Below the pieces are notes generated by a model. That model did no database searches. It was not told where the DNA came from and saw only the letters and a list, made by a program, of their open reading frames with translations. Below, in pieces: positions 2,673 to 38,401 of a stretch of 41,370 nt of DNA (its first letter is position 1; the number at the start of each line of letters is the position of its first letter). Origin of the DNA: a virus. The DNA lies in the IMG/VR virus record IMGVR_UViG_3300045988_025431, positions 1 to 41,370 of that record. One strand, 5' to 3'. The position numbers and the translations under genes are program-made.

Positions 2673-5600
2673 TTATTTCCCGGCCAAACGGGCGTTCTTC
2701 CGGACTTTCTCGTTTACAAGCGCCTTGTTGTAATGCCGGATGCTTTTGCCTACCCCCAGATACTCAAAAAGTGCGTTCCGCTGCTTCTCGCTCAAACCGG
2801 GCATATTGTACACCGCCTGCATGATCAGCAGCCCCTTGCTGTTGGGGATCGTCTCCCCGTTTCTGTCCTTGACGCTTTCCAGATCGGACACCTGCGTTTT
2901 CAGCGCCACATAAATTTCCGGCTTAATGCCGTACTTCTTCTGTGCCTCCTGTGCTTTCAACACCCACTTGTCCGTGATCTCATAGGTTTTGTCCGTCTCG
3001 TGCAGTGCTGTCTTTTTGGCGTAGGTCTCCGCGCTGGACAGGGCCTTGTCCTTCTGCTCGTCAGTGAAGGCCCTGAACACCTGGCTGTCCTCCAACCCGG
3101 ATTCCATGGAGCTGTAAAGCGCGGACTTCCTGCGGCTGTATACGATGTAGTCATCGGAGCTGAGATCGTTTTCCGTAAATTTGTCCTCGCCCTCGCCGGT
3201 GCCGTACCGGTCTTTCGCACCAATCAGACTTGCAGCCGCGTCCGGGAGCCTGAAATCCTCATCGTTTTCCCGTTCCTTGTCCAGCTTGCTCCGCATACTG
3301 CTGTCAACGGAGCTGTTGTCCAGCGCCATGAAGTCTTTTAGCTCTTTGCGGATGTGTTCATAGGTGGTCAGGTCGCCCTGCTCCAGCGCCTTGAACGCGA
3401 GATTCAGGTACCGGCTTTTGTTTGCGGTGCTGTAAATATTGTATGTGAATTTCTCAAACTCATATTCCAGCGCCACGCTGCCGGTAGCTTGGACAGCCGT
3501 CCGGACTGCCGCCATTGCGTCCCGCTTGATGTTGGCCACCGGAAGGCCGAAAAGTTTAGAACAGGCTGCAAACATATTTGCCAGCGCTTCTTCTCTGGTC
3601 TTTTTGCCGCTGCCGCCCATGCTTGCGGTGAAATCTTTAGAGGCAGATACAATGTCAGAAAACACCTGCATGTCCGTCCGGGATACGCTGTACCCCTGCG
3701 TCAGGGAAAGAATATCCTTTACAAACGGGATGCTTCCAAGCTTGTTGACGTTACTCCCAAGGTTTCCTTCCAACACAATATGCTGCAGCAGCTCCTTGGT
3801 GGCCTTCTCGTCACCGGTAATGCCGGTCAGTGCCGTCAGGAACTTTTCCCAATAATCCTTGTCCGGATCATCGTCACGCCCTGCGTCTGCAATGCTCTGG
3901 GCCAGTGCGTTAACTACGTCCGTAACCAGCAAAGCAGCTGCCGCACGTCCCACGGTTTTAATGGCCTTGCTCCGCTTGGCAGGGTTCTCTTCATAGCGCA
4001 TATTGTCCCATGCCCGCATGAACACGTTCAGGCTCATAATGGGTTCGCCCATGAACGATGTCGCCTGCTTGGCAAGGTCGCTCTTGCCGCGCATGATGTT
4101 GGAGCGCTGCAAAATGCCGTCTACCACCTGCGTCTGGTCGATCATGTCGGTGAACACTTCATTGACTGCGCTGTAAAATTCGCCGCTTCCGGCCCGCAGA
4201 TTGGGCCTCTCCCGCTTCACCTGCCACTCGCAGGCGTTCCAGAGTGCGCCCCAGGTAACGGCGTCCGCTTTTCCTGCGGGAGCGCCAGCCTTGTCATTGA
4301 TCTTGTTGGCGATGCCCTCCTTGCCGTAAAACCGATCATTCAGGGTATAGGGGGAGGAAATGTCAAAGCTGCCCACATCCTTCCGCATGGCAATGGGAGA
4401 ATGCGTCAAAGCTTTTTCCCAGCCGTTTCCCTTCGTCACGCCGCCGGTCAGTCCTCTTGCCATGTCAGCAGGGTCCAATACGGCGGATGCCCGGAAAAAG
4501 GCGGTCGGCTGCTGGATGACCACACGCACGTTCGCACCGACGGCAGCGCCCTTAAAGCTCCCGATGCCTTTTGCGAATTTATCCGTCAGCGGTTCAAAAT
4601 CCTTTGTTTTGATTCCGTTCTGGATGTCGCCCATCAGCTTCTGCCAGTACTGCTGAGATCCCTGTCCGCCCTTCTCTTCCAGGAAGCCCTTTACGGTCTG
4701 AACGAGATTGCCTTCACTGTCCCGGAACTGGAAATTGTACAGCCGGTTCGCGTCCTCCATGGGGCACAGCCACGCTGCGTAGTCAATCATATCGGATGCG
4801 TGGTCCGCGAAGGTGTCAAACACCCCTCGGATGCTCAACGGCGTCGCCGCGTTGGGCTTTACAGCCTGCGCCATGCCGATATTCTTAATGGAGCGCACAT
4901 TCCCGCTGTCCTTCTCCTGCGAACTGTGCAGTGCTTCCTTTGCGGATTTGATGGGCCAGTAGTCCTGCTCCGTGAATTTCTTATAGCCGTAGGCTTTCAT
5001 GCTGGCCTCGTTGCCGTAGTTGGCAAGAACACCGGTGGTCAGCTTCTGCAAACCGTCCGCGATCCTGATCTGCTCCGGGGTCAAAACCCTCACAATGGAC
5101 TGGATATCCTCTGCGGAAAGATGGATCACGTCCGTTCCTCTGGGGATCTTGGTCTTGCCGGGGATCTTGATCTCCGGCTGCACGATGCCGCCTTTCAGCA
5201 GGTGGTCCTCCGCCTGCTTGCGTTCGCTCAGAAGATACAGCTCCATGGCCTGTGCCGTGGTCAGGTCCAGCTCATGGCCTTCCGTTGTGGTGAAATGGTG
5301 GACTTCCTCATTCATGGACGTCACCGCGTTTTCGCGGATGCCGGTTTTCGCGTCGCCCAGAATCTGGTGAACCTTCTCCGCCACATCCCGCGCCATGATC
5401 TCCTGATGGTCCTGCGCGTTCCGCAGCATCCGGTAAATGTCCTTTCCGGTCTGGCCGAAGTGGGCAAAGAACGTATAAGGCGTTTCCAGACTGATCGCCA
5501 CGTTGTTCCCCAGTTTCCGCCGCCGGGTCATGCCGTCCATGCGGAGCGCATCAGCAAACTGCTTGGTGGTCTCGAATTTCTCCGACGCTAGCGTCTTGCC

Positions 5601-37342: not shown

Positions 37343-37549
37343 TCATGTCCGTGTCCTCCGCTTTTTAAGCAGGTCATCCACCGTCACGCCGAAATAGTCT
37401 GCAATGGCCTTTAAGGTGTCTACACGTGGGGACGATTCACGCTTGGCCCACTTCCCGATCGCTCCGTTGCCGATCCCGCACCGCTTCTCCAGCTCGGCAA
37501 TCGTGATCTTGTTCTTCACACACAAACGCTTGACATTTTCGTAGATCAA
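37343..37549 (-). CDS. Cro-like XRE-family HTH regulator (68 aa, TTG start)
   Basis: NVKRLCVKNKITIAELEKRCGIGNGAIGKWAKRESSPRVDTLKAIADYFGVTVDDLL, with an AAGGAGGG RBS. It is divergent from the CI-like gene. Confidence 0.8.
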   Translation of the reverse strand: MIYENVKRLCVKNKITIAELEKRCGIGNGAIGKWAKRESSPRVDTLKAIADYFGVTVDDLLKKRRTRT

Positions 37550-37770
37550 AGATCTCCCTCCTTTCAGAAACTCAGCATAGAAAATATTGAGGTTTCAAGC
37601 TCCCCTCTTGACAAACTGATAGAAAATGCGCTATTATTGTGTTGCAGATACAATTTATCAATTTCTAAAGCTCGCATTTGTGGGGGCTTGGTTTTTGTTA
37701 CCCTCTGAAAGCTATTATAGTAGCGAACTCGCTACTTGTCAATAGCTAATCCGCTACTATTGGATTATTT
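37550..37770. promoter_or_regulatory. genetic switch region with divergent promoters and operator-like repeats
   Basis: Minus-strand promoter: TTGATA (37661-37656), 17 nt, AATAAT (37638-37633). Plus-strand candidates: TTGACA 37608-37613, and TTGTCA 37736-37741 with TATTGG 37758-37763. There is an 18-bp palindrome AGTAGCGAACTCGCTACT at 37719-37736 plus an extra half-site CGCTACT at 37752-37758. ATAGAAAAT occurs twice. Confidence 0.6.
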
Positions 37771-37776
37771 TTGCTT

Positions 37777-38220
37777 ATGAATATTCGTAATCAGGCCATC
37801 GTTGCTAATATTAAAGATATTGCGACAATGCGCCGAACAACAATTAAACAGATTGAAAAAGATTTAGGTTTTGGAAACGGAATGATTGGGAAGTGGAAGT
37901 CTGCGCCCAAAAGCCCTCCGTTTGAAAAAATCGAAATGATCGCAGAGTATCTCGGTGTCACGGTAGATGATCTGACCGGCACCGCAGATACCCAGGCAGA
38001 ATACCCGGAGCTGTGGGCTGCTGCGGAAGCAAAGATCCGTATGGATGATGCTTTGGCAGGCATAAAAAAAGACGCCCCCGGCCCGCAGGCCGAGAGCGAT
38101 TTGGAGCGGAGGTTCAGAGCTGCTGCTGCAAAGCTTCCTCCTGATTTTCTGGAGCGTGAGATTGCGTATCTGGAACAGAAAGCGCAGCAGCTGCACGTTC
38201 CAACTGATTCAGATATGTAA
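37777..38220 (+). CDS. CI-like XRE-family repressor (147 aa)
   Basis: HTH IKQIEKDLGFGNGMIGKWKSAPKSPPFEKIEMIAEYLGVTVDDLTG. It is divergent from cro and on the same strand as the integrase. No obvious SD precedes ATG 37777, so the mRNA may have a short leader or none. Confidence 0.75.
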   Translation: MNIRNQAIVANIKDIATMRRTTIKQIEKDLGFGNGMIGKWKSAPKSPPFEKIEMIAEYLGVTVDDLTGTADTQAEYPELWAAAEAKIRMDDALAGIKKDAPGPQAESDLERRFRAAAAKLPPDFLEREIAYLEQKAQQLHVPTDSDM

Positions 38221-38284
38221 GCTGTTCCTCCGGTGGCAGGTGCTTCCATAACGTCACCAGCCGTTCGATTGCTGCGTCGTCCAT
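38114..38284 (-). CDS. 56-aa protein encoded antisense to the 3' end of the repressor gene (candidate antirepressor/regulator)
   Basis: ATG 38284 follows an AAAGGAGC RBS and lies downstream of the strong promoter at 38359-38331. Sequence: MDDAAIERLVTLWKHLPPEEQLTYLNQLERAAAAL.... It overlaps the repressor gene by 107 nt on the opposite strand. Confidence 0.4.
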   Translation of the reverse strand: MDDAAIERLVTLWKHLPPEEQLTYLNQLERAAAALSVPDTQSHAPENQEEALQQQL

Positions 38285-38330
38285 GTTCCGTGCTCCTTTC
38301 GTTCGTACATTCGTTCGATTCATGTTTTTT

Positions 38331-38359
38331 AGTATAGTACTTCTGTTTTGAGATTGCAA
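38331..38359 (-). promoter_or_regulatory. near-consensus sigma-70 promoter on the minus strand (TTGCAA - 17 nt - TATACT)
   Basis: -35 at 38359-38354, a 17-nt spacer, and -10 at 38336-38331. It points into the 3' end of the repressor gene. Confidence 0.6.
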
Positions 38360-38401
38360 CCAGAATTTATTAGAAACTAAAAGTTGTGCGGGGGGATATA
38401 A

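Follow-up and report, generated by a model that had tools for sequence, protein, structure and literature searches.

A candidate antirepressor gene convergent with the repressor gene of a temperate human-gut phage

The genome of an uncultured temperate phage of the human gut carries, opposite the 3' end of its CI-like repressor gene, a short minus-strand unit (38359-38063) that would constitute a self-contained gene for a small helical-hairpin protein. The window, by which we mean the whole 41,370-nt stretch of DNA that was analyzed, is this complete, terminally redundant genome of ~41.3 kb. We regard it as very probable that the unit is a real small gene, and the best explanation of the sequence comparisons is that its product is a diverged paralogue of the C-terminal two-helix oligomerization hairpin found on the XRE repressors of this phage family. 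With respect to function, we lean slightly toward a SinI/AimX-like antirepressor that mimics the C-terminal hairpin of the repressor, and this small antirepressor is possibly under SOS control. An initial annotation of the locus had offered two readings, one in which the unit opposes the repressor by antisense or transcriptional interference and one in which it encodes a mimic of the oligomerization helix; the comparative evidence favors the latter and speaks against the former.

Gene neighborhood and anatomy of the unit

The P22-like portal, terminase, capsid and lysin genes of the phage lie on the minus strand, and the lysogeny side, on the plus strand, comprises the CI-like XRE repressor, a 251-aa membrane protein, an HTH-membrane protein and a tyrosine integrase. 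The large ORFs are structural, lysis and integrase genes only. The switch region (37608-37742) holds a 12/12 minus-strand promoter (TTGACA-17-TATAAT, 37742-37714), whose -35 hexamer is abutted by the palindrome AGTAGCGAACTCGCTACT; an 11/12 plus-strand promoter (37608-37637) faces it, and the predicted transcripts of the two would share ~60 nt. The features to which we refer are the following.

37343-37549, minus strand: Cro-like HTH gene, 68 aa, divergent from the repressor gene (ORF list and Pfam)
37777-38220, plus strand: CI-like XRE repressor gene, 147 aa (Pfam HTH_3, AF2)
38063-38098, minus strand: intrinsic terminator with an 11-bp stem, TGCG loop and U-tract (scan and comparison)
38114-38284, minus strand: small gene, 56 aa, beginning MDDAAIERLVTLWKHLPPEEQLTYLNQLER (ORF list, comparison, AF2)
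38292-38299, minus strand: Shine-Dalgarno (SD) sequence AAAGGAGC, 7 nt ahead of the ATG at 38284
38304-38317, minus strand: candidate LexA (Cheo-type) box CGAAC-GAAT-GTACG (CGAACGAATGTACG; pattern and PWM)
38321-38323, minus strand: upstream in-frame ATG, close to the predicted transcription start
38331-38336, minus strand: -10 hexamer TATACT, after a 17-nt spacer from the -35 hexamer (sequence scan)
38354-38359, minus strand: -35 hexamer TTGCAA (sequence scan)

We gathered ~60 related loci from IMG/VR, metagenomes and Logan contigs. The DNA common to them extends from 38064, the first base of the U-tract, to ~38330-38360 in the promoter, and we refer to this shared block as the cassette.

The initial annotation was accurate in its coordinates for the promoter (TTGCAA at 38359-38354, a 17-nt spacer, TATACT at 38336-38331) and for an RBS followed by a 56-aa ORF (ATG 38284, stop at 38114) that shares 107 nt with the repressor gene (37777-38220). 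Its description of the promoter as near-consensus proved too generous, since 9/12 consensus matches indicate moderate strength. Because the window promoter matches at only these 9/12 positions, the case for a real promoter comes more from the comparison of eight diverged variants, all of which hold the pattern TTGnAn-17-TAT(A/G/C)(C/A)T as the sequence of the spacer varies. Across these variants with their differing spacers the -35 hexamer reads TTGCAA, TTGAAA, TTGCAT or TTGAAC, and in two variant classes the -10 hexamers TATGCT and TATCAT are both preceded by TGn, that is, by an extended -10. TTGCAA is its own reverse complement and may also serve a divergent plus-strand promoter of the 251-aa membrane-protein gene (38354-38400); on the membrane-protein side of the hexamer an AT-rich stretch is kept in several variants (38354-38400). 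In some contigs gene callers chose the upstream ATG (38323) as the start of the small gene, and leaderless translation from this codon may give a 69-aa isoform.

The hairpin past the stop codon and the minus-strand U-tract that follows it, also reported in the initial annotation, were recovered as a stem of 11 pairs, 9 of them G-C (38098-38073), followed by TCTTTTTTTA. This terminator falls inside the linker codons of the repressor (IKKDAPGPQAES), a segment predicted by AF2 to be disordered. No cassette lacks the hairpin or the U-tract, and the terminator of an 88%-identical variant, L024, carries one compensatory C-G to T-A change. Since the hairpin has no plus-strand T-run, it should terminate the minus-strand transcript only. 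The terminator limits the antisense overlap to ~160 nt, and the predicted transcript ends before the HTH codons.

A unit so bounded might instead act mainly as RNA, with a convergent transcript of ~260 nt pairing with the 3' end of the repressor mRNA, or with polymerases colliding, and with the ORF incidental. Promoter and terminator do delimit a short transcript whose final portion is antisense to the repressor gene, and convergent promoters are a known switch device of P2/186-type phages. However, the terminator would halt this transcript ahead of the HTH codons, and paralogues or analogues of the small gene also occur clear of any repressor gene (L030, L194, L307). Moreover, the part of the unit that lies outside the repressor gene is the most conserved, and the reading frame, the SD sequence and a pattern of conservative residue changes are kept, as described below. 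In the AimX phages discussed at the end of this paper, function was lost with start-to-stop mutants and not with a recoded overlap (bioRxiv 10.1101/2025.11.23.689978). We therefore judge a mainly RNA-based role to be improbable. That the unit runs antisense into the 3' end of the repressor gene is probably a by-product of compact packing, and the overlap may add some interference.

Conservation of the small ORF among related cassettes

A homology and co-occurrence search, which the initial annotation had proposed as a check, found the ORF intact, at 53-56 aa, in 35/35 readable unique cassettes. The cassette occurs behind at least five different HTH heads and before differing downstream genes. 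Every cassette has a purine-rich SD core, which reads AGGAG except in L048 alone, where it is GGGAG. Most copies are >90% identical, and since the main-type copies are nearly identical, much of the conservation of the ORF reflects recent common descent. The ORF survives in the 88%-identical L024 variant, and it survives in an alternative allele (L017, L025-27, L033, L042 and L043) whose flanks are nearly identical to those of the main type and whose center has roughly 65% DNA identity, a figure estimated from the alignment. The alternative allele holds a 53-aa ORF beginning MDEERVRQLLTLYRQMTPEEQLTYLERLRA, in which residues 1-30 are changed conservatively and the tail is free; the main and alternative small proteins are ~38% identical. 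For the 21 codons that do not overlap the repressor gene, pN/pS was 0.08/0.22 against L024 and about 0.3/0.5-0.6 against the alternative allele, which suggests purifying selection, with ratios only moderately below 1 and a small sample.

The distribution of variants among 28 main-type cassettes is in keeping with a coding function. The segment that belongs to the small ORF only (38221-38284) has 0.14 variants per nt, the lowest value in the unit, compared with 0.34 in the linker, 0.32 in the overlap and 0.41 in the leader. These 64 nt lie past the repressor stop codon, where nothing is coded on the plus strand and the minus strand codes for the N-terminus of the small protein only. Within the overlap, the same 28 cassettes show equal numbers of synonymous and non-synonymous changes (17 each) when read in the repressor frame, and 9 and 25, respectively, when read in the frame of the small ORF. 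The constraint there is thus carried by the repressor helices, and the C-terminal tail of the small protein is free. The initial annotation had considered the choice of the translated frame undecidable from composition; the comparison suggests that a choice is unnecessary, as both overlapping frames appear to be translated.

These observations also bear on whether the ORF is expressed at all. The DNA might be kept as code for the repressor tail and as a recombination linker, with the apparent expression signals arising by chance or belonging to the plus strand. This would fit the >90% identity of most copies, which makes conservation partly a matter of recent descent, and the 9/12 match of the promoter. 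It would leave unexplained why the 64 nt past the repressor stop, which code for nothing on the plus strand, are the least variable, and why the ORF outlasts the heavy divergence of the center as well as that of L024. Nor does it fit with promoter hexamers that are kept in eight variants around different spacers, with a hairpin that lacks a T-run on the plus strand, or with a small protein for which AF2 returns pLDDT >90. We consider an unexpressed ORF very unlikely.

A profile search of 1.8 billion proteins added one distant family member, the 55-aa protein P0113, encoded in L030 between an HTH-membrane gene and a membrane-protein gene, where it overlaps no repressor gene. The family is made up of few members in three sequence types: the main type with its close variants, the alternative type and P0113. 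L030 contains two family members (2501-2865, 3625-3816); the canonical copy adjoins membrane-protein genes, and P0113 is followed by a 66-aa ORF with a 4-nt overlap.

Two further loci are of note. L029 has a cassette identical to that of L024 and a shortened repressor head; the repressor gene called there has 81 aa and stops short of the cassette, and the small ORF is intact and was called as a gene. In one related contig, an A>T change at 38179 would convert a lysine codon in the last helix of the repressor to a stop, and in the small protein it would give S>T only.

Likeness to repressor tails and proposed function

We compared the predicted folds of the two proteins. In the AF2 model of the small protein, helices 3-14 and 18-35 are joined at LPP, with pLDDT >90 for residues 1-30; residues 1-35 thus form a predicted helix-LPP-helix hairpin and the rest is a disordered tail. 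The repressor is predicted to consist of an HTH domain (1-67), a disordered segment (96-107) and helices 108-119 and 122-139, again joined at LPP, so that the two proteins share the helix-LPP-helix layout. The hairpin of the repressor (108-139) is encoded at ~38098-38193. A Pfam search with the repressor returned HTH_3 only and no S24 peptidase domain, and its profile matched PDB entries through the HTH domain (P22 C2; SinR, 1b0n, 2.5e-5; and the 142-aa HTH protein 9iaq). The small protein had no Pfam match, and fold and sequence searches of the PDB gave nothing meaningful for it, a result to be expected for a helical hairpin. The unit had no match in Rfam.

Likeness between the small protein and the tail of its own repressor, which the initial annotation had pointed out, is present and weak (SW z = 1.7; hhalign 61% probability, E = 8e-5). 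The AAAA part of the proposed motif match was rejected as a sign of homology, as it is not colinear between the proteins and is due to a short inverted repeat. A clearer relationship emerged with the allelic tail type T2, to which the window small protein was matched at 8e-4 by BLASTP and with SW z = 5.3 (LVTLWKHLPPE---EQLTYL vs LIDLFRQLSPERQQEELAYL); for the alternative small protein the BLASTP value against the T2 tail was 1e-4. In the two genes the YL(E/N)Q codons, which lie on different DNA, are related to one another as a 75% inverted repeat of 20 nt; this fits the trace of an old inverted duplication. Small-protein type and tail type always occurred together, as S1/T1 or S2/T2, in 36/36 cassettes, and both alleles were found behind the same heads. 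Since the genes overlap physically, this linkage is consistent with co-evolution and is no proof of it.

Related gut-phage repressors with other tails also have convergent small hairpin ORFs. The ORF of L211 (1790-1939; 49 aa) shares 86 nt with the 3' end of its repressor gene, and its terminator lies among the linker codons; against the tail of that repressor it scores SW z = 9.7 (TLTQEQKDAILSLARKI vs GLSQHQKDAILAVLLSY). Loci of the L194 type (L194:1864-2152) have two tandem ORFs of 50 aa and 40 aa, and some of them also one of 58 aa. The small ORF of L307 (2088-2255) resembles a tail type other than that of the neighboring repressor, and the rule that the small protein mimics its cognate tail is therefore not universal.

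The L307 case, together with the weak likeness of the window protein to its own repressor tail, would suit a real protein that is not an antirepressor. Such a protein could be a co-factor that stabilizes or extends the repressor oligomer, a regulator with a different target (e.g. the conserved HTH-membrane protein encoded next to the integrase) or the product of an accessory gene expressed in the lysogen (a moron), and the swapping of the cassette as a block between repressor and accessory genes is moron-like. We think this unlikely, because the unit is linked without exception to the repressor tail allele (36/36 cassettes) and appears paralogous to repressor tails, because the repressor has no other induction input, and because AimX and SinI provide a precedent for the antirepressor that we favor.

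How such an antirepressor might be controlled is suggested by its leader. The LexA (Cheo) box of Firmicutes is GAAC-N4-GTTC. The candidate box of the unit, which would occupy positions +7 to +21 or thereabouts of the predicted transcript, departs from this by one core base: its right half reads GTAC instead of the GTTC or GTTT of Firmicutes. Nowhere else does the phage sequence match CGAACNNNNGTWCG exactly. Little in the leader varies, even when the two alleles are compared. Diverged leaders hold GAAC and GTAC around a variable N4 (GAAT, AAAT, AAGT or GGAT), and two contigs have GTGC in place of GTAC; the conservation of the box core could not be distinguished statistically from that of the remaining leader. 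Among Oscillospiraceae lexA genes (L325-L353), 13/29 have an upstream GAAC-N4-GTTT, one of them reading GATTT, which points to GTTT rather than GTTC as the right half-site in this family. These boxes lie 54-142 nt upstream of the start, and the other 16 genes have no box with the pattern used. We built a PWM from the Oscillospiraceae lexA-upstream boxes, the family being a guess that may not be the host's. With this matrix, which may not suit the host, the leader box ranked 4th of ~82,700 phage positions at 12.9 bits; the lexA boxes used for training scored 16-26 bits and the L024 variant of the leader box 17.7. A second LexA box in the promoter spacer of variant B (GAACAGAAGTAC) was rejected, as it scored low and was absent from the other variants.

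A host search in which the small ORF, the repressor tail and the integrase were compared with genome contigs revealed no close prophage, and 401 Oscillospiraceae genomes contained no close match to the locus. The attP tRNA 3' end matches many phyla, a 105-kb contig with the locus has only phage DNA around it, and a phage database gave weak matches only, one of them to a Flavonifractor phage. Since the host family is a guess, we propose LexA control of the small gene through this imperfect leader box with moderate confidence.

In the model that we favor, the promoter would be kept silent in the lysogen, and the most likely agent is host LexA, sitting on the GAAC-N4-GTAC box past the start site. 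Upon DNA damage the small protein would be made and would pair with the C-terminal hairpin of the repressor, replacing the second repressor subunit. Repressor oligomers would thereby be broken and operator binding lowered, and the cro-side lytic promoter would then be released. Since the repressor has no self-cleavage domain, it would need an induction input of this kind.

A broader proposal, which we offer only tentatively, sees the repressor tail and the decoy gene that overlaps it as one exchangeable "induction cassette", which assorts without regard to the DNA-binding head and whose alleles define induction-specificity groups. Were this true, human-gut phages would share at least two alleles, T1/S1 and T2/S2, in circulation behind the same heads, and each of the other tail families would come with convergent decoys of its own, in some cases a tandem pair. 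It would then be the induction-specificity group, as distinct from the immunity group, that determines which co-resident prophages are induced jointly when DNA is damaged.

Significance and comparison with known systems

Short XRE repressors without a self-cleavage domain are found in the majority of temperate phages of gut Clostridia. If our reading is true, a decoy gene opposite the repressor gene would be the missing DNA-damage induction input of such phages, and because of the overlap with the repressor, gene callers usually miss such decoy genes. The locus offers a compact test case, with a 56-aa protein, two alleles paired with two tail alleles, and several heads, and it could be used to study the evolution of antirepressor specificity and prophage cross-induction. 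The antirepressor-decoy design was shown in 2025 for Bacillus phages, and the kind of mechanism is already known from SinI and AimX.

SinI of B. subtilis is a protein of ~57 aa with two helices that are homologous to the C-terminal oligomerization helices of SinR. The window locus resembles this system in combining a small two-helix protein with a repressor whose HTH is of the phage-XRE type. In contrast, sinI and sinR are co-oriented, with sinI as the upstream gene, and the pair is chromosomal and controls biofilm formation rather than belonging to a prophage. The Pfam SinI domain (PF08671) was detected in neither the small protein nor the repressor at E <= 1.

The short promoter-to-terminator unit read against a regulatory gene recalls lambda OOP and P22 sar. 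However, these have no conserved ORF, whereas the coding part of the window unit is its most constrained part. 186 Tum and Gifsy GfoA/GfhA (PMC3121763) follow the logic proposed here on the strength of a candidate box, in which a small protein whose promoter is held by host LexA inactivates a repressor that cannot be cleaved; they are unrelated proteins of Gram-negative phages, and their genes lie elsewhere in the genome.

The closest parallel is AimX-AimC-AimL, the "extended arbitrium" of the Bacillus phages phi106, phiW23, Wbeta and BMBtp14 (Kabel et al., bioRxiv 10.1101/2025.11.23.689978). AimX is a 29-80 aa ORF that is convergent on, and sometimes overlaps, the 3' end of the gene for an XRE repressor with an HTH, an unstructured linker and antiparallel C-terminal helices; the AimX product heterodimerizes with the repressor C-terminal domain and blocks oligomerization and DNA binding, a mechanism that its authors liken to SinI-SinR (bioRxiv 10.1101/2025.11.23.689978). 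An antisense RNA effect was found to be unimportant in these phages, and the small ORF of phi106 is immediately preceded by a LexA site (bioRxiv 10.1101/2025.11.23.689978). By architecture the window unit is alike: the small ORF is convergent with the repressor 3' end, here with its 107-nt overlap; the repressor is predicted by Pfam and AF2 to have, as AimC does, an XRE HTH, a linker and C-terminal helices with no peptidase; and a divergent cro-like gene is present. Unlike in the AimX-AimC phages, neither aimR nor aimP was found when the ORFs and protein annotation of this phage were examined, and the gene directly upstream of the small gene is the divergent one for the 251-aa membrane protein and not aimR-aimP. 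Since the phage lacks aimR and aimP, this is not an arbitrium system. The host also differs, being a human-gut organism and not Bacillus, as do the discrete terminator in the linker codons and the apparent paralogy of the small protein to repressor tails. As judged by these comparisons, the window unit is an arbitrium-free variant of this recently described kind, and its predicted product belongs to an undescribed protein family.
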